64,000 nt of DNA from Clostridia bacterium. GTDB lineage: Bacteria; Bacillota; Clostridia; Christensenellales; RUG350. The DNA lies in assembly GCA_017631635.1 (NCBI GenBank), contig JAGBSX010000048.1, positions 5,626-69,625 of the forward strand. The letters are read 5' to 3'. Below the pieces are notes generated by a model. That model was not told where the DNA came from. It searched no databases and saw only the letters and a program-made list of their open reading frames with translations. Of the stretch, positions 33,848 to 59,354 are shown piece after piece. How positions within the stretch are numbered: the first letter of the stretch is position 1; each line of letters begins with the position of its first letter. The translations under genes were made by a program, and so were the position numbers.

Positions 33848-34420
33848 CTACATAGGAGGTTTATATGTGGACTGAACAAATGCTATGTATTCTTCTAAAC
33901 TTGTGATATAATTATTATACAAAGTCTCTTTTTTGAGTATGCTATGAAAACGCTCCATTGGAGAGTCGTCAATAGGCGTGCCTTTACGGCTCATGGAAAT
34001 GGTGATTCCATTAGCTTCACAGATGGCTTTGTATTCAAAGGACGTGTATTGAAACCCTTGGTCACTGTGAATGATTAGGTTTTTCACGTTTTTTTTTGCT
34101 ATTGCTTCGTTTAACGTATCCGTCACAAGAGAAATATTATTAAATTTCCCTATTCTATACGCAACAATTCTTCTATCATACAAATCTATTATTGTAGATA
34201 AATATGCTCGTTTCTCGTTGTGTATTAAATATGTTATGTCAGTCAACCAAACTTTGTTTGGAGCAGTAGAATTAAAATTACGTTTTATTAAATTAGGCTT
34301 AACGTTTTCTACTATTTGACGATATTTAGGTTTTGTTTTAATTCTCTTTACATATTCAGGTTTTAAGGCGTATTTTGCCATAATTCGTTGAACTTTTTTG
34401 TGATTAAATATGCGTGTCAC
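33848..34420 (-). mobile_element. IS3-family transposase OrfB fragment (5'-truncated, no OrfA)
   Basis: DDE core WLTDITYL...HSDQGFQYTS...PMERFHSILKKE. Only 190 aa, starts at a GTG with no RBS, and there is no upstream orfA or frameshift site. Confidence 0.75.
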
Positions 34421-34482
34421 TCATAGGGATTTTAATTGAATAATTTATAAAACTCGACTTGTGAAAAGTCGAGTTCTGTTTA

Positions 34483-34833
34483 TTATTTCTCTTTAAGTGT
34501 TTTGCACGAAGAAATTAACATTTTTCGTATTGCACCACAATCGTTATTTAGTTTTTTATATTGATTTTCTTCTAAATAGCCTGTTTCAAAAAGCAATTCC
34601 AACCAATATTCACTTTCAAAGCACTCTTTTAATGCTATATCAAGTTTTGAAATAAAATCAGCCGTTCCTTGAGCGTACTGCGCTTAGTGGATATTTGCAC
34701 CAATACTTGTTCCCGAACGCAATAGTTGATTAGTTAATACACTTTCTTTATTGTTGGCTTTAATTTCTCTTGTAATAAATACAATGTTTTTAGCAAACTC
34801 TTTTGCTTTTTCTCTTAAAATGCTTTCACGCAT
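34483..34833 (-). pseudogene. four-helix-bundle protein (TIGR02436 / 23S IVS protein / Avd-like) with an in-frame TAA
   Basis: My translation is MRESILREKAKEFAKNIVFITREIKANNKESVLTNQLLRSGTSIGANIH*AQYAQGTADFISKLDIALKECFESEYWLELLFETGYL... The stop at 34684-34686 sits where the family has GANI(A/H)EA. Confidence 0.65.
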
Positions 34834-34868
34834 ACAATAATTATAGCATAAATCAAGTTTTTAGTAAA

Positions 34869-35077
34869 GTGATATTGTTTGCATAGCAAACAGTTATATT
34901 TTTAGAGCAAGTCTAAAAGTTATATTTTGACCTGTGGTCAAAGTTATATTATATTTGCCACAACTCGCCGATAGGCGAATATCACTTTGCGTAGCAAAAT
35001 ATAACGCCGTAAGCATATAACTTGCCGAAAGGCAAATATAGTTGTGGCGTAGTGATAAATCCCTATCACTACGCCAC
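34869..35077 (-). repeat. hairpin-array element copy E2
   Basis: Core GTTATATTATATTTGCCACAAC at 34943-34964 (reverse complement of GTTGTGGCAAATATAATATAAC). 14-bp terminal hairpin GTGGCGTAGTGATA/TATCACTACGCCAC at 35044-35077. Mini-hairpins separated by AGTTATAT / AATATCAC / AATATAAC. Confidence 0.8.
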
Positions 35078-35125
35078 TAATCGTTAGTCCTATTTGATGA
35101 CAATTAAGTCGTGTCTACGTGTGGT

Positions 35126-39241: not shown

Positions 39242-40126
39242 TTAGATGAGATTTTGCTCGCGCATTAGGTCGTAGAGAACTTCTGCGTGCTTATCCTCCA
39301 TAGGAGTAAGTGGTAGTCGTAGATAATTGTCACAGTAGCCCATCTTGGCGACGGCTGCTTTGACAGGGATAGGATTGACCTCTACAAATAGTTGCTTGAT
39401 GAGAGGGAATAGGTCTAGTTGGAGTCTAGTAGCCTCCTTGACGTTGCCCTCTAGATAAGCGTGGCACATACGAGAAGTCTCTGCAGGCATTATGTTGGAC
39501 AATACGGATATTACGCCCGAGCCACCTAGAGACATAATAGGTACGATTTGGTCGTCGTTGCCTGAGTAGATGTCTATCTCATCTCCACATAGATGAGCGA
39601 GTTCGGCTATTTGGGATAGATTGCCACTAGCCTCCTTGATGCCCACGATATTGGGGTGCTTTGCGAGTATTTGCATAGATTGAGGAGTGAGGTTGCATCC
39701 AGTACGGCTAGGCACGTTGTATAGTATGCAAGGCTTGGTAGATGCGTCGGCTATAGCCTCAAATGACTTGATGAGACCATTTTGGGTAGCCTTGTTGTAG
39801 TAAGGTGTGACTAGTAGCATAGCATCTGCGCCCACTTCGCAAGAAAACTTGGTGAGTTCGATAGCATAACTAATGTCGTTTGAGCCAGTACCTGCTATGA
39901 CAGGCACTCTACCTGCTACTACGTCTACGCAAAACTTGATAGCGTCTTTGTGCTCTTGGTCGTTGAGAGTAGAGCCCTCACCGGTAGTACCTACTGCTAC
40001 TATGGCGTCTATGCCACTAGCGATTTGCCACTCTATCAATCTGCGAAAATTCTCAAAATCGATACCATTTTCGTTGAGTGGTGTGACGATTGCTGTGGCT
40101 GCGCCTGTAAAAACTGTATTTTTCAT
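39242..40126 (-). CDS. dapA: 4-hydroxy-tetrahydrodipicolinate synthase
   Basis: TAIVTP...GTTGE...YNVP..TG... motifs. ATG 40126 follows an AAGGAG RBS. The 96-codon upstream extension in the track is the riboswitch leader. Confidence 0.9.
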   Translation of the reverse strand: MKNTVFTGAATAIVTPLNENGIDFENFRRLIEWQIASGIDAIVAVGTTGEGSTLNDQEHKDAIKFCVDVVAGRVPVIAGTGSNDISYAIELTKFSCEVGADAMLLVTPYYNKATQNGLIKSFEAIADASTKPCILYNVPSRTGCNLTPQSMQILAKHPNIVGIKEASGNLSQIAELAHLCGDEIDIYSGNDDQIVPIMSLGGSGVISVLSNIMPAETSRMCHAYLEGNVKEATRLQLDLFPLIKQLFVEVNPIPVKAAVAKMGYCDNYLRLPLTPMEDKHAEVLYDLMREQNLI

Positions 40127-40189: not shown

Positions 40190-40390
40190 CCATCTCATCA
40201 AAATATCGCCACTACGCGAGATAATTGAATCGATAGCCCTCCGCAAAATGCGACAACAAGACGGATATTCTCCGAATTGCCAGCCAAATATCCCTAAGCC
40301 GAGGATACCCACTTCGGCATTCGCCCCTCTCGTGGCAGGTCGGCTAACCCGTACACCCACGATATTGACTAAATGCGCCTCTATCAAATG
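40190..40390 (-). ncRNA. lysine riboswitch (L-box) leader of dapA-dapB-ddh-lysA
   Basis: On the minus strand: GATAGAGGCGC... GAGGGGCGAATGCCGAAGTGGG ...CTGGCA... TGTCGC..GCGGAGGGCTATC. These are the conserved L-box blocks, with a GATAG/CTATC P1. Promoter TTGACA (40427-40422), 17 nt, TATCAT (40404-40399). Confidence 0.7.
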
Positions 40391-40552
40391 ATAGATAGAT
40401 GATAGCATACCCAAATGGCTTTGTCAACATAAAATATGCCTATCTTCGCTAAAATATATAAAAAATCACGATTTTTTCAAAAAAAAGCCTTGCCCACTTG
40501 CTAGATATGTGTATAGTGTGGTATAGTGTATGAGTCGTTAGGAGGAGGAATT

Positions 40553-42013: not shown

Positions 42014-42129
42014 TCCGGTGACAATAGCGAAAGGGACCCACCTGTATCCATTCCGAACACAGTAGTTAAGCCTTTCAGCGCAGATGGTACTTGACTGGTA
42101 GCGGTCTGGGAGAGTATGACGTCGCCGGA
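42014..42129 (+). rRNA. rrf: 5S ribosomal RNA (stand-alone copy)
   Basis: 116 nt. Terminal helix TCCGGTGAC/GTCGCCGGA. Conserved CCGAACAC, GTTAAGC, CAGCGC.GATGGTA, GGGAGAGTA.GAC. Followed by T6. Confidence 0.9.
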
Positions 42130-42153
42130 TTTTTTATGCAAAAAAAGAGGGTA

Positions 42154-42473
42154 TTGTCGCTCTTCCCGTAGGGAACTAGCGACAACTAAATAAATCCTTA
42201 CGGATTTGTGATATTCGTCTAACGACGAGTGATATTGCCTGCGGCAGTGATATTTGCCTACGGCAAGTGATATTGCCTATCGGCAGTGATATTTGCCTAT
42301 CGGCAAGTTATATTGCTTACGCAGTTATATTTTGCTAACGCAAAGTTTTATTTTCCCTTTCGGGAAAGTTGTGGTAAATATAATATAACTTTGACCGAAA
42401 GTCAAAATATAACGCAAAATAGTTTTTCATATCACTTTTAGCCACAAGGCTAAAAATATCACTAATATGTTTC
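42154..42473 (+). repeat. hairpin-array element copy E3
   Basis: 5' hairpin TTGTCGCT..AGCGACAA, then TAAATAAATCC-ttac-GGATTT. Nine units of GT(G/T)ATATT plus hairpin. Core GTTGTGGTAAATATAATATAAC at 42368-42389. Then hairpins followed by AATATAAC / ATATCAC. Confidence 0.85.
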
Positions 42474-42534
42474 AATTTGTCCAAAGTCTATTGCCAATTA
42501 AAAACCTCACCCTGTACGGATGAGGTTTTCGTTT

Positions 42535-42611
<77 letters not shown>

Positions 42612-42718: not shown

Positions 42719-43663
42719 ATGAGCAAGCCTAGATACAAATTAGCCAAAGGGACTGCACTCGCCGGCATGGGATTGAGACTGCTAATGGGGTCTTATAGCG
42801 CATGGAAATTTAGAGTGGCAGGCAAGTTTCTCCGTGCTATTTATAGAGGTAGAGGGGACAAGAGAACTCTACGCAGAGGGGAGATATATATACCTAGTGG
42901 AGACAATACTCTCAGGGTGGTCACCTATGAGGACAAGAGCGCTAGTGGAGACACTATAGCACTACTATGGATACACGGAGGTGGCTACGCTATGGGTATC
43001 CCAGAGCAAGAGGTAGTATTCGCCAAGAAGTTGTGCCACTCCTGTCACGTCAAGATGTATCTACCAGACTACACTTTGAGCGTGGACAAGCCATACCCTA
43101 GAGGACTAGAGGATTGCTACACCACTCTACTATATCTCTACGACCACGCAGAGGAGCTAGGGGTAGATAGAGACAAGATAATAGTAGGTGGAGATAGCGC
43201 AGGAGGAGGACTCACGATAGCGCTATGCCTACTCGCTAGAGATAGAGGAGTAGTCAAGATAGCAGGACATATTCCTCTATATCCTATGATAGACTGCAGA
43301 GAGACGGAGACTTCTAGAGACAATCACGCACCCGTATGGGACACCTTGTCCAACAACCGTGCTTGGGATATATACCTGAGGGACGTGGACAGGAATAGTC
43401 CACCTATATACGCCTCACCGTCTCTAGCAGAGAGTTATGAAGGTATGCCACCGTGCGTGACTTTAGTAGGGGAGCATGACCCCTTCTTGGCAGAGACTAG
43501 GAGATACGTGGAGAGACTAAAGAGTGAGGGGATAGATACCTATTACCGTGAGTACGAGGGGTGCTACCACGGATTTGACGTAATAGCAAGAAATTCTCCT
43601 TCGGCTAGAGAAAGTGGAGAGTTTTTGGTAGAGAGTGTCCAAGATATGATAAGCAAATTATAA
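42719..43663 (+). CDS. alpha/beta-fold esterase/lipase (HGGG type)
   Basis: LWIHGGGYAMG oxyanion motif and the GDSAGGGL nucleophile elbow. Start is at 42713 or 42719. No SD, and the -10 TATACT ends at 42712. Confidence 0.75.
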   Translation: MSKPRYKLAKGTALAGMGLRLLMGSYSAWKFRVAGKFLRAIYRGRGDKRTLRRGEIYIPSGDNTLRVVTYEDKSASGDTIALLWIHGGGYAMGIPEQEVVFAKKLCHSCHVKMYLPDYTLSVDKPYPRGLEDCYTTLLYLYDHAEELGVDRDKIIVGGDSAGGGLTIALCLLARDRGVVKIAGHIPLYPMIDCRETETSRDNHAPVWDTLSNNRAWDIYLRDVDRNSPPIYASPSLAESYEGMPPCVTLVGEHDPFLAETRRYVERLKSEGIDTYYREYEGCYHGFDVIARNSPSARESGEFLVESVQDMISKL

Positions 43664-43680
43664 AATAAATCAAGCCTCCA

Positions 43681-44066
43681 AGCCGAGTCCCTACGAGGGA
43701 TTCGGGGGCTAAATAAATCCGTAGACGGATTTGTGATATTCGTCTAACGACGAGTGATATTGCCTATCGGCAAGTTATATTGCCTATCGGCAAGTTATAT
43801 TGCCTATCGGCAGTGATATTTGCCTATCGGCAAGTTATATTGCCTATCGGCAGTTATATTTTGCTAACGCAAAGTTTTATTTTCCCTTTCGGGAAAGTTG
43901 TGGTAAATATAATATAACTGCGACTGTAAGTCGCAATATAGTGCAAAACTTATGTGCATATCACTTTTAGCCACAAGGCTAAAAATATCACTTATCAAAC
44001 TTAATCTTTTGTGGATAAGAAAAGCCCACCATATTTCGCATATAAGCGAAGTATAGTGGGCTACAC
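43681..44066 (+). repeat. hairpin-array element copy E4 (longest)
   Basis: 5' hairpin CCGAGTCCC/GGGATTCGG, then TAAATAAATCC..GGATTT. Tandem units at 43754-43896 (five carry TGCC-TATC-GGCA). Core at 43897-43918. 3' hairpins with ATATCAC spacers. Long 3' hairpin AGCCCACCATATTTCGC..GCGAAGTATAGTGGGCT at 44023-44062. Confidence 0.85.
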
Positions 44067-44131
44067 TTTTGTATTAAATTAAAATCCCCTTATAGGAACG
44101 CCCCTATTAGGAGGCTTTTTTCATAGGGATA

Positions 44132-44896
44132 TTAGGCTAGGCGTAGCACCGTCAAGGTGGCAGAGCCTAGGGTGATAGTACTGTCAGATGTGTTGTATAT
44201 AGACAGAAAGTCTCCTGCGGTGAGTGAGAGGAGGATGGTACGAGATACAGCCTCAGTCTCTGCAGAGGTGTTGACTGACAAAGTTTCGTTTGGCACAAGC
44301 ACACCGTTTCTATACAGCGACACCGATAGGTCGCTACCACCTGCCTCAGGAGTACCTGATAGTGAGTATGATACTAGATATACTCCACTCTCTGTGATGA
44401 ATACGCTACTACCCGTGACAATCATAGTACTGCCCACAGTTTGCTCAACTTGCGCGATAGGCAGTACAGTATCGGTAGCAATCGTACCTGCGTACACTCC
44501 TGCATATATAGCGTCGTTTGTACCTGCAGGGCCTTGAGGGCCTACAGGACCAGTCGCACCTGTAGCGCCGGTCGGACCTACAGGACCTATTGCACCAGTC
44601 GCACCAGTTGGGCCTTGTGGACCTACCGGACCTACAGGACCTACAGGGCCAGTCGCACCAGTTGCACCCGTCTCTCCCTGAGGGCCTGCTGGACCTACTG
44701 GACCTCTAGGACCTCGAGGACCTATTGCACCAGTCGCACCAGTCGCACCTGTAGCACCAGTCGGACCTATAGGACCTTGTGGTCCCATAGCACCCATAGG
44801 GCCCTGAGGACCTTGTGGACCTACAGGACCTCTCGGTCCACGAAGATACACGTAGTTTGGTTGACAAGTATTGTCACATCTATTAAATAAGCACAT
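44132..44896 (-). CDS. collagen-like triple-helix repeat protein with a BclA-type C-terminal domain
   Basis: 35 uninterrupted G-X-Y triplets ([14 protein letters not shown]...GPQGPAG) by my count. A ~125-aa beta-rich C-terminal domain follows, resembling the BclA/C1q-like exosporium domain. Confidence 0.8.
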
Positions 44897-55607: not shown

Positions 55608-56675
55608 ATGGACAAGATAATCAAGTGGATATTAGTAAGTGTGGTCGTGACATTGGCGACTGTGGGAGAGGTGGCTCGAGCGACCTATGTATATCCACGC
55701 CAAATAGTAGCAAAAGAGGTCAACGTAGATATCCTCAACCTCTATGGTCGAGACGAGGATAGACTGCGAGATGCTCTCATCAATATAGCCGATCACAAGA
55801 TAGCGCTAGATTATATATCTAGTGGTCTAGGAGACAAGGTGGTAGAGGTGGCTAGAGAGGTGGAGAGAGATGCTAGGGGGGATAGCATAATATTTGAGCC
55901 AAATACTAGCGAAAAGTTTCGCTATATACCTGCTAGGAGTGGTATTAGAGTGAAGTGGGATGAGGTGTACCTAGATGCTATAGAGGTGCTATATGCAGGA
56001 GGAGGAGAGGTCAGGGTGCATACCGAGAGTGTGCCTGCCGAGATTAAGTACGATAAAGGTATAGAGAATTATACTACTCTACGGTCCTCTTTCGTGACGT
56101 ATTTTAATATGGACAATACCTCTAGGGTGCACAATATCACTTTGGCTAGTAGCAGTATATCGGGAGTAGTAGTGAGGGCAGGAGAGAGATTTTCTTTCAA
56201 CGAGGTGGTAGGCAAGCGTACCCTAGGGAGAGGATATAGAGTAGCGCCAGTCATAGTCAAAGGAGAACTAGTAGAGGGAGTAGGAGGAGGTGTGTGTCAA
56301 GTGAGCACCACTCTCTACAACGCAGTCACTCTAGCAGGTCTCAAATCGGTGTGCAAGGTCGCCCACTCTATGCCTGTGACCTACGTAGAGCCATCTAGAG
56401 ACGTGACGGTATCGGAGCATATAGATTATGCATTTGTCAATGATAGTGGAGAGGATATCTATATAGAGTGTGTGGCGAGAGCAAATTATATCAAGGTCAA
56501 TATATATGGCGTACGCACCGACGAGCATATAGATATAGACACGGAGTATATAGACGAAGATGGATATAGATATAGCACGGCGTATATAGTCACCACCAAG
56601 AGAGGAGTAGTAGTATCTAGGAGCAAACTGCGTAGCGACAAATACCTTTTACCATCGCCCACTCCCACCACCTAG
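55608..56675 (+). CDS. VanW-family protein
   Basis: GGGVCQVSTTLYNA motif and an N-terminal anchor. Confidence 0.8.
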   Translation: MDKIIKWILVSVVVTLATVGEVARATYVYPRQIVAKEVNVDILNLYGRDEDRLRDALINIADHKIALDYISSGLGDKVVEVAREVERDARGDSIIFEPNTSEKFRYIPARSGIRVKWDEVYLDAIEVLYAGGGEVRVHTESVPAEIKYDKGIENYTTLRSSFVTYFNMDNTSRVHNITLASSSISGVVVRAGERFSFNEVVGKRTLGRGYRVAPVIVKGELVEGVGGGVCQVSTTLYNAVTLAGLKSVCKVAHSMPVTYVEPSRDVTVSEHIDYAFVNDSGEDIYIECVARANYIKVNIYGVRTDEHIDIDTEYIDEDGYRYSTAYIVTTKRGVVVSRSKLRSDKYLLPSPTPTT

Positions 56676-57048
56676 CCGAGTCCTATTAGGGACTCGGCAA
56701 CTAAATAAATCCTTACGGATTTGTGATATTGCATCGCAGTGTTGCCGAGCAACTTTAGTTGCGAACGCCAACTGCTTTAGCAGTTATATTGCCTATCGGC
56801 AGTTATATTTGCCTACGGCAAGTTAAGGATTTATTTAATATAACTTTGGCGATAGCCAAAATATAACTTTTAGACTTGTCTAAAAATATAACTGTTTGCA
56901 CAGCAAACAATATCACTTTACTTAAAAATCATATGCTTTGCAAAGCAAAAAGAAAAGGATAGCAAAAAATTTTGCTATCCTTTTATATTCCTAAAAAATC
57001 CCTAAGGGCGATGCCCTTAGCCGAATCCCTTGTAGGGACTCGGCTAGG
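56675..57048 (+). repeat. hairpin-array element copy E5
   Basis: Starts at the vanW stop codon. Bounded by near-identical hairpins GCCGAGTCC..GGACTCGGC (56676-56699) and GCCGAATCCC..GGGACTCGGC (57020-57044). Has GTGATATT/GTTATATT then AATATAAC/AATATCAC spacers. Central AAGGATTTATTTA replaces the usual core. Confidence 0.8.
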
Positions 57049-59001: not shown

Positions 59002-59067
59002 TCGTATCAATACAAAAAAGCATTTCGCAAAACAGCAATAGACATAGGAATTTTTAAACAATAAAAA

Positions 59068-59303
59068 GTGTAGCCCACTATACTTCGCAAAAAGCGAAAT
59101 ATGGTGGGCTTTGCTTATCCACAGAATAGTTAAATAATTTAGTTATATTTTATCCTATGGTTAAAGTTATATTATATTTGCCACAACTTTCCCGAAAGGG
59201 AAAATAAAACTTTGCATAGCAAAATATCACTGCTTTTAGCAATATAACTTGCCGTTAGGCAAATATAGTTGTGGCGTAGCAATAATCCCTATCGCTACGC
59301 CAC
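59068..59303 (-). repeat. hairpin-array element copy E6
   Basis: Core at 59166-59187 (reverse complement orientation). Terminal hairpin GTGGCGTAGC..GCTACGCCAC at 59271-59303. Long hairpin AGCCCAC..GTGGGCT at 59072-59110, homologous to E4 44023-44062. Confidence 0.8.
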
Positions 59304-59354
59304 TAAGAAACGCTTTTTTCATTTTGTTTGTTTTGTTTGACTATCTAGTAGTGC

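Follow-up and report, generated by a model that had tools for sequence, protein, structure and literature searches.

Our analysis of a 64,000-nt stretch of a Clostridia bacterium genome (the window; GenBank assembly GCA_017631635.1, contig JAGBSX010000048.1, positions 5,626 to 69,625 of the forward strand) reveals five copies, and no others, of one composite intergenic repeat, here designated E2 to E6, whose 5′ hairpin arrays match the Rfam motif Gut-1. E2 and E6 lie on the minus strand, and E3, E4, and E5 lie on the plus strand; structures are described on these strands, which were also those of an earlier sequence-only reading of the window. The 9-mer AGTKATATT, which links the hairpins of the repeat, occurs 38 times on the two strands of the window, versus 2.4 expected. 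The copies differ from one another by 10–30% and comprise the following features (P0, terminal hairpin; hp, hairpin; numbers with the prefix L, loci outside the window).

35044–35077, minus: P0 of E2, a 14-bp terminal hairpin GTGGCGTAGTGATAGGGATTTATCACTACGCCAC; the E6 homologue has C-G in place of T-A, a compensatory change
35031–35040, minus: predicted helix 5′ strand of E2, TATATTTGCC (end of linker 0 and hp1 5′ arm), a perfect 10-bp complement of 34950–34959
34950–34959, minus: core of E2 and predicted helix 3′ strand, GGCAAATATA, aligned with GGCGAATATA of 48 other elements
34957–34964, minus: GTTGTGGC of E2, complementary to GCCACAAC at 35041–35048, overlapping the helix by GGC and not conserved in L141 or L191
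34869–35043, minus: canonical body of E2, ~175 nt (four units, core, four units), its 5′ half a sub-threshold Gut-1 match
~34837–34865, minus: −35/extended −10-like sequence TTTACT..TGCTATAAT preceding the E2 pseudogene
34480–34833, minus: four-helix-bundle pseudogene (PF05635 / TIGR02436) directly 3′ of E2, with a GAA-to-TAA nonsense mutation at codon 50
34449–34474, minus: intrinsic terminator closing the module of E2 and four-helix-bundle gene
42156–42463, plus: whole of E3, with P0 at 42156–42183, B-type head hairpin TAAATAAATCC..GGATTT, extra array units, and canonical body
42014–42130 and 42500–42529: 5S rRNA gene and terminator, with E3 in between
42289–42297, plus: ATATTTGCC of E3, which can pair with core GGTAAATAT at 42373–42381 (9 bp, one G·U; 84 nt)
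43680–44109, plus: whole E4 insertion, between split arms AAGCCTCC (43672–43679) and GGAGGCTT plus T-run (44110–44121)
43683–43705, 43816–43824, 43902–43910, and 44024–44061, plus: P0, partner ATATTTGCC, core (86 nt from the partner; 9 bp, one G·U), and tail hairpin of E4
56675–57043, plus: whole of E5, with P0 at 56675–56698, 3′ array to 56917, terminator at 56953–56984, and flanks CCTA...TAGG
56702–56715 and 56824–56837, plus: predicted 14-bp helix of E5, TAAATAAATCCTTA with TAAGGATTTATTTA
57019–57043, plus: second P0-type palindrome of E5
59032–59306, minus: E6 insertion, ~273 bp, in the loop of a bidirectional terminator with arms GCGTTTC (59313–59307) and GAAATGC (59026–59020)
59271–59303, 59258–59267 with 59173–59182, and 59073–59109, minus: P0, predicted helix strands (TATATTTGCC/GGCAAATATA), and tail hairpin of E6

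A pattern scan for three linkers in contigs representing one genome per species yielded at least 120 loci. Almost all of the listed loci come from uncultured Clostridia of the gut or rumen (Acutalibacteraceae, Oscillospiraceae, Ruminococcus, and Christensenellaceae). A Bacteroidales origin, suggested by GC content and the four-helix-bundle gene, was rejected because the related loci are from metagenome-assembled Clostridia. Family counts below refer to the 72 distinct elements among the matches listed, and the canonical set comprises 49 elements. The 72 elements share a common plan: P0, a hairpin of 12–17 bp, is followed by a 5′ array of four units, each consisting of the linker AGTKATATT and a short hairpin of variable sequence; then by the core AGTTnnnnGGCGAATAnAA; and then by a 3′ array of four units, each consisting of a short hairpin and the inverted linker AATATMACT. 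Exactly four plus four linkers are present in 41 of 49 canonical elements, body size clusters at 170–178 nt (E2 being a canonical member), the spacers between linkers span 7 to 18 bp, and F-type linkers precede R-type linkers in all 137 clusters, the reverse order never occurring. Across elements, it is the linkers that keep their sequence, while stems vary through compensatory changes. The full element is approximately two-fold symmetric, and the Gut-1 motif is one half of it.

The copies also document how the arrays vary. E3 and E4 are mosaics, having an E5-type 5′ head and an E2-type core. A strain variant of E4 (L335:1305–1715, 98% identical to window positions 43650–44140) lacks exactly 80 nt, corresponding to four 20-nt linker-hairpin units, and carries the E3 version of the fifth hairpin, indicating that arrays change by unit slippage and by conversion between copies.

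Cross-genome comparison strongly supports a predicted long-range helix that would enclose the 5′ array. In particular, TTnTATTYGCC, which comprises the end of linker 0 and the 5′ arm of hp1, is complementary to GGCRAATAnAA of the core, giving a helix of 10–11 bp that closes the array. A perfect complement of the core, at least 10 nt long, lies 79–87 nt upstream in 61 of the 72 elements (GGCGAATAnAA with TTn'TATTCGCC). Strands co-vary in classes (..ATAT-AA with TTATATT..; ..ATAA-AA with TTTTATT..; ..ATAG-AA with TTCTATT..; GGCA.. with ..TGCC), and a variant allele of the whole helix, GGATTTATTTA with TAAATAAATCC, is present in E5, L180, and L246. Specifically, a position with three states is Watson–Crick paired in 57 of 59 elements and G·U paired in the other 2; over 100,000 permutations, the mean is 22.6 and the highest value 38. 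No such correspondence with the core is seen for the neighbouring linker.

Alignment-based tests agree. In a MAFFT alignment of 49 elements, the 11 pairs of the helix are standard in 99.3% of 539 cells, versus 35–52% in slid controls, and all four exceptions are G·U on the strand described here. The covariation score of the helix is 0.152, versus 0.043 for shuffled controls, and was reached by 0 of 500 shuffles. Run without constraints, RNAalifold recovers the helix and five local hairpins in its consensus, with compensatory changes in 22 of 38 predicted pairs; many compensatory changes fall in hp3 and hp5–hp7. The helix and the local hairpin hp1 are mutually exclusive. Hp1 is 97.4% paired across the family and is broken in five elements that have intact long-range pairing. 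Since the helix competes with a conserved hairpin, it would be one of two alternative pairings rather than a fixed structure.

The sequence-only reading had proposed that each copy pairs its centre with a segment of its own, placed differently from copy to copy, and that centre and partner are exchanged together, as expected of a folded single-stranded form. All strings it quoted are present where it placed them, and a folded form with a long-range helix around the 5′ array is upheld by the covariation. The observation was real, if confirmed only in part, and the interpretation is partly supported, being right in kind and wrong in detail. The partner does not move about: across the 72 elements, E3 and E4 included, it lies at a fixed distance of 79–87 nt upstream of the core. 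Nor is the exchange of centre and partner general: E3 and E4, with a centre of another type, have the E5-type partner TAAATAAATCC as well. The pair quoted for E5, AAGGATTTATTTA (56825–56837) with TAAATAAATCCTT (56702–56714), is a true variant of the conserved helix; this 13–14-nt pair is far beyond chance and recurs in L180 and L246. The compensatory difference noted between the terminal hairpins of E2 and E6 is also confirmed (T-A in E2 and C-G in E6, which has an adjacent G·T).

Two further structural candidates were rejected. A "ladder" of 5′ linkers paired with 3′ linkers finds no co-variation at variable linker positions (at linker position 4, 79 G-C, 68 T-C, 15 T-A, and 2 G-A), although the invariant inner rungs may form. 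A reading of the core TATAAT as an internal promoter lacks a −35 element or an extended −10 element and leaves the covariation of linker 0 unexplained.

The 5′ arrays identify the element as a relative of a catalogued motif. The Rfam covariance model for Gut-1 (RF01706) matches E3 at 42206–42278 with 65.2 bits, above the curated cut-off of 50 bits, and matches the 5′ arrays of the other copies on the same strand below the cut-off (E2, 48.2 bits at 34974–35044; E6, 39.6 bits; E5, 38.9 bits; E4, 36.9 bits). Related loci in Clostridia score 52–74 bits, and model alignments contain the three consecutive hairpins with GUGAWAU linkers that define Gut-1. The element and Gut-1 belong to the same sequence family, which is found only in gut metagenomes and metagenome-assembled genomes, and the published alignment includes the same elements. 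Gut-1 was described in one sentence by Weinberg et al. 2010 (PMC2864571), and has been in Rfam since 2010 as a small RNA (sRNA) with no cultivated host. With its 77 nt, the model spans no more than three 5′-array hairpins, and P0 is labelled in the Rfam entry as a terminator lying upstream. The same P0, core, and 3′ array are visible in the flanking parts of the original 2010 alignment, outside the model. Neither the model nor that one-sentence description includes the core, the 3′ array with its inverted linkers, the long-range helix, the terminator insertion, or the coupling to a four-helix-bundle gene. The element is thus a known Rfam motif, here first seen within a larger structured, terminator-inserting element coupled to a protein gene of the type of Avd and of the proteins of 23S rRNA intervening sequences (IVSs).

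An empty site reveals where E6 entered. At L332, a 91%-identical 2-hydroxyacid dehydrogenase gene and a convergent major facilitator superfamily (MFS) gene are separated by only 72 nt, which constitute a single bidirectional terminator (AAAAAAAGCATTTC-TTTGC-GAAATGCTTTTT). These two arms also occur in the window, ~273 bp apart, and E6 fills the loop between them, giving a presence/absence polymorphism with a precise empty site, as in miniature inverted-repeat transposable elements (MITEs). E4 is likewise bracketed by arms AAGCCTCC ... GGAGGCTTTTTT, and the split-terminator pattern recurs in L199, L218, L137, L195, L204, L227, and L229; in L131, the split arms span the protein gene. In 9 of 41 elements, at least 10 nt of the 18 nt beside P0 recur downstream in reverse-complemented form, versus 0 of 41 and 1 of 41 in two controls. 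A split host terminator explains the A-run and GC-rich segment before P0 as the 5′ half of that terminator. These sites mark the element as inserted DNA, with E6 inside a bidirectional terminator loop and split terminators around many other copies.

Twelve of 69 elements follow a tRNA gene in the same orientation, starting ~35 nt after it and involving eight tRNA identities, and E3 follows an orphan 5S rRNA gene, there being no 16S or 23S rRNA gene in the 64 kb. In related genomes, the region downstream of VanW orthologues lacks the element; these loci were rejected as an empty site for E5, as the downstream synteny is broken and no boundaries can be drawn. E5 has ends GCCGAGTCC...GGGACTCGGC within CCTA..TAGG, which were examined as terminal repeats or target duplication, and E6 is compatible with a TT/AA duplication with ambiguous boundaries. 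Near-identical palindromes GAGTCCCTAnnAGGGAYTC are present at 43685–43703, 56678–56695, and 57023–57041. The first two are P0 of E4 and E5, and the third lies beyond the E5 terminator, such that this palindrome bounds E5 on either side, within CCTA...TAGG. P0 hairpins with different stems (L127, L195, L219, L224, L238, L131, and L165) share an apical motif, YYCC-nTAA-GGRRG, in which a C·A or U·G mismatch adjoins the loop.

A scan of plasmids gave no match. Phage sequences gave three weak matches in unannotated faecal phage contigs ("Bacteriophage sp." MT835815.1, MT835718.1, and MT835590.1) and four IMG/VR contigs (L326–L329), which contain the four-helix-bundle gene or the core motif and could represent phage carriage or mis-binned bacterial DNA. 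With hardly any carriage found, plasmids and phages were rejected as carriers of the element.

E2 is physically linked to a protein gene. The module at 34449–35083, comprising P0, the arrays, a promoter-like sequence, a PF05635 / TIGR02436 gene, and a terminator, is 88% identical to L184, with no flanking synteny. The gene is directly downstream of 8 of 72 unselected elements and belongs to the only specific recurrent neighbour family among the 120 listed loci. It is intact in L131, L140, L141, L171, L177, and L184, and it is a pseudogene in E2. Conversely, among relatives at least 70% identical in metagenome contigs, practically all with enough upstream sequence have the array before the gene, the usual order being tRNA, terminator, array, promoter, gene. 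Short copies lack the PF05635 gene, and L165 and L225 resemble L171 minus the open reading frame (ORF). The protein matches PDB 2RLD and has no defence-system match in PADLOC-DB. The PF05635 family is homologous to Avd (PMC10053308). In Coxiella burnetii, a selfish element with an S23p ORF forms the 23S rRNA IVS; it occupies the helix 45 loop and is excised by RNase III (PMC4990558). The literature searched contains no paper connecting terminator insertions with Gut-1 or PF05635.

A very common human-gut locus (L263, L305, and ~60 more) has the order tRNA, terminator, 5′ array, core AGCGAATATAATATCACC, degenerate 3′ array, promoter, and four-helix-bundle gene, the gene having a GTG start; L276 is a recombinant with only a 3′ remnant. 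Directly after the terminator of the E2 module lies an apparently truncated ORF of 190 aa with an IS3-family integrase core (rve; 33848–34420, minus). Some IS3-family members, such as IS1397, target hairpin loops.

We prefer to explain the five window copies as copies of a modular insertion element that occurs in uncultured Clostridia of the gut and rumen and has an extended Gut-1 motif of ~175 nt at its heart. An element splitting a terminator would be transcribed from the flanking gene or genes, and, to judge from sequence, the folded form is most likely RNA. The dense self-structure (P0, small hairpins, long-range helix, and tail hairpin) would keep the ends close, and termination would be restored by the tail hairpin of the element or by the re-joined host arms. 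In E4 and E6, a tail hairpin and T-run lie on one side and P0 without a U-run on the other; we infer that the tail hairpin should stop transcription from one side, favouring transcripts of the strand described here. The approximate two-fold symmetry, seen in the inverted linkers and in loops of G-N-(N)-A type in the 3′ half of either strand, would suit reading from both sides between convergent genes, and fits a single-stranded DNA intermediate equally well. By analogy with the 23S rRNA IVS, the four-helix-bundle protein would be a likely array-binding partner for spread or maintenance. In short, our best guess is that the split terminator stays functional because the element folds on itself, the four-helix-bundle protein being its partner. 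Taken jointly, across element identity, helix, insertion, RNA form, and protein partner, this explanation seems to us about evenly poised between right and wrong.

Several observations weigh against it. Nearest-neighbour energies do not favour the helix over hp1, the mean pair probabilities being 0.24 and 0.50, respectively, with RNA parameters and 0.31 and 0.49 with DNA parameters. Single-copy minimum-free-energy folds are ambiguous, because the linkers are complementary. The helix is poorly kept in E3, E4, and the L335 variant. Stems are ~97–99% Watson–Crick, and there is no G·U excess on either strand, which is unusual for an RNA selected on one strand (G·U versus A·C: 24 versus 14 in small hairpins and 8 versus 12 in P0); assignment of the strand by this ratio, which is 4 versus 0 in the helix, was rejected. 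P0 of tRNA-linked copies is a full terminator with a U-run, such that only read-through would give transcripts of the array. Relative to flanking protein genes, one orientation outnumbers the other only ~2:1. Target duplications cannot be fixed, no transposase, integrase, or reverse transcriptase (RT) family is recurrent near the 120 listed loci as a mobilising enzyme, and the role of the protein is pure inference by analogy. An initial view that five of five copies are co-oriented with the upstream gene was abandoned: E3–E6 are flanked by convergent genes, and transcription can reach them from either side, which makes co-orientation uninformative. A promoter directly after the array was likewise rejected, being present in 14 of 70 elements and 7 of 60 controls, a modest enrichment.

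The alternative that survives best is that the hairpins act as single-stranded DNA of a non-autonomous transposon, recognised by a transposase encoded elsewhere, with RNA being irrelevant; hairpin-dependent HUH or IS110-type enzymes are the model for such recognition. We consider it possible and rather doubtful. It accommodates the insertion itself, which is demonstrable and targets a hairpin, the near-perfect palindromic stems with no wobble bias on either strand, the linkers being one 9-mer in inverted orientation, and the slightly higher helix probability with DNA parameters than with RNA parameters. On the opposite strand, hp2 reads GCGAAGC, a sequence that forms an unusually stable DNA mini-hairpin. 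Against a single-stranded DNA form stand the lack of any recurrent transposase, integrase, or RT near the 120 listed loci, the four-helix-bundle gene as the only linked gene, and the 10–30% divergence of the copies, which shows no sign of recent bursts; the helix exceptions, all G·T on one strand, fit RNA as well.

That the copies are paralogous genes for a stand-alone sRNA, whose single-stranded linkers titrate a protein or an RNA, rather than insertions, we regard as improbable. The Rfam class, the conservation of size and hairpin positions across Clostridia families, and the many compensatory changes in hp3 and hp5–hp7 are in line with a gene, and repeated motifs between hairpins resemble protein-sponge RNAs. 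The empty site, the split terminators, the mosaic copies, and the unit slippage argue for insertion instead, and no promoter of its own was seen upstream of P0, the signal tested after the 3′ array being the modest one given above. In addition, F-type and R-type linkers have different RNA sequences, and a single RNA-binding partner would hence not recognise both.

Very improbable, in our estimate, is that the exact pairings of the sequence-only reading are the functional ones, namely GCCACAAC with GTTGTGGC in E2 and E6, and core with 3′ hairpin apex in E3 and E4. The 8-bp complement of E2 is present (35048–35041 with 34964–34957), as is that of E6, and shuffling of the two 27-nt segments of E2 gives a probability of 0.008 for at least 8 bp and of 0.0006 for at least 10 bp. 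The longest complement in these segments is the 10-bp TATATTTGCC:GGCAAATATA, which adjoins and overlaps the 8-mer. The 8-bp pair cannot form alongside the universally conserved helix, with which it has GGC in common and which it crosses topologically. It is not conserved: it is reduced to 6 of 8 in L141 and absent in L191, despite an identical core, and in L184, L199, and L218, despite the same or a similar core. The 6-bp pairing of TTGTGG with the apex CCACAA in E3 and E4 is kept in L191 only through a G·U wobble and is lost in L218, which has the CCACAA apex and a mismatched core. ATATTTGCC, at the canonical distance, is the better candidate partner in E3 and E4.

A duplex-DNA platform, operator- or centromere-like, in which a protein reads the 9-mer both ways and the palindromic spacers are incidental, has in its favour eight sites of one sequence, direct and then inverted, the last abutting promoter-like sequence in some loci, and is scarcely credible, since the 7–18-bp spacers are conserved as compensating hairpins rather than in length phase, the long-range covariation is unexplained on duplex DNA, and promoter adjacency is that of 14 of 70 elements versus 7 of 60 controls. 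The inverted linker contains TATCACT (e.g. 34978–34986), which would fit the WATCACW heptad bound by the omega repressor of inc18 plasmids.

Another close known system is the 23S rRNA IVS with an S23p ORF. Both are selfish insertions into the apical loop of an RNA hairpin whose flanking stem is preserved, and both may encode a protein of the PF05635 / S23p family, here as the E2 pseudogene and as the intact genes of other loci. Gene decay occurs in both (the S23p ORF in Coxiella, PMC4990558, and the nonsense mutation in E2). They differ in that the host hairpin here is a terminator or lies beside a tRNA or 5S rRNA gene, rather than being helix 25 or 45 of 23S rRNA, and in that the body here is a linker-hairpin array; the window contains no 23S rRNA gene, and copies of the element lie in terminators or 3′ of 5S rRNA and tRNA genes.

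Repetitive extragenic palindromes and bacterial interspersed mosaic elements (REP/BIME), BOX, Correia, and enterobacterial repetitive intergenic consensus (ERIC) elements are likewise short, structured, dispersed repeats at gene 3′ ends, modular in unit number and co-transcribed with their neighbours. In all of these, palindrome sequence is conserved, whereas here the linkers are conserved, the stems vary, and the target is a terminator loop. No parent of the REP-associated tyrosine transposase (RAYT), HUH, or insertion sequence (IS) type is recurrent among the 120 listed loci, and no autonomous transposase-encoding relative, as expected for a MITE, was found among them. IS elements of hairpin loops (IS1397 and ISKpn1 in REP loops) and group IIC introns at terminators share a palindromic target at the end of a transcription unit, but encode a transposase or intron RT, whereas the element here encodes neither. 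In diversity-generating retroelements (DGRs), target recognition also involves a DNA hairpin. Their associated protein Avd is homologous to the linked protein here (PMC10053308); no RT family is recurrent at the 120 listed loci, and no template/variable repeat pair was seen downstream of the gene. A type III toxin-antitoxin system is not indicated: no ToxN-, AbiQ-, or CptN-type toxin is present, the protein being PF05635 with no match in PADLOC-DB.

These comparisons place Gut-1, listed in Rfam as a three-hairpin sRNA, in a context of helix, terminator insertion, and PF05635 coupling. The PF05635 family is widespread, including Avd of DGRs and the 23S IVS proteins; the link described here offers a concrete system for the origin and movement of IVSs and for the role of the four-helix-bundle protein, and shows how inserted DNA can occupy a terminator without obviously destroying it. 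More speculatively, and on balance unlikely, Gut-1 elements and ORF-bearing 23S IVSs could be two branches of one unrecognised class of mobile element that enters RNA or DNA hairpin loops, has an Avd-like gene as its signature and no transposase of its own, and spreads, for example, through an RNA intermediate and host RT, for which the Avd-like protein would be a cofactor, or through a hairpin-directed mechanism, with the array and its long-range helix as the substrate recognised.

The window contains further features near the copies. A lysine riboswitch (40226–40391, minus; 68.8 bits) lies upstream of a minus-strand gene ending near 39242. The 5S rRNA gene preceding E3 (42014–42130, plus) is convergent with tRNA-Val(GAC) (42535–42611, minus), with E3 and the bidirectional terminator in between. 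A gene for a collagen-like protein with a BclA C-terminal domain (44132–44896, minus) contains 9-bp (GXX) tandem repeats at 44486–44840, and its product has 254 aa in the window versus 245 aa in L335.

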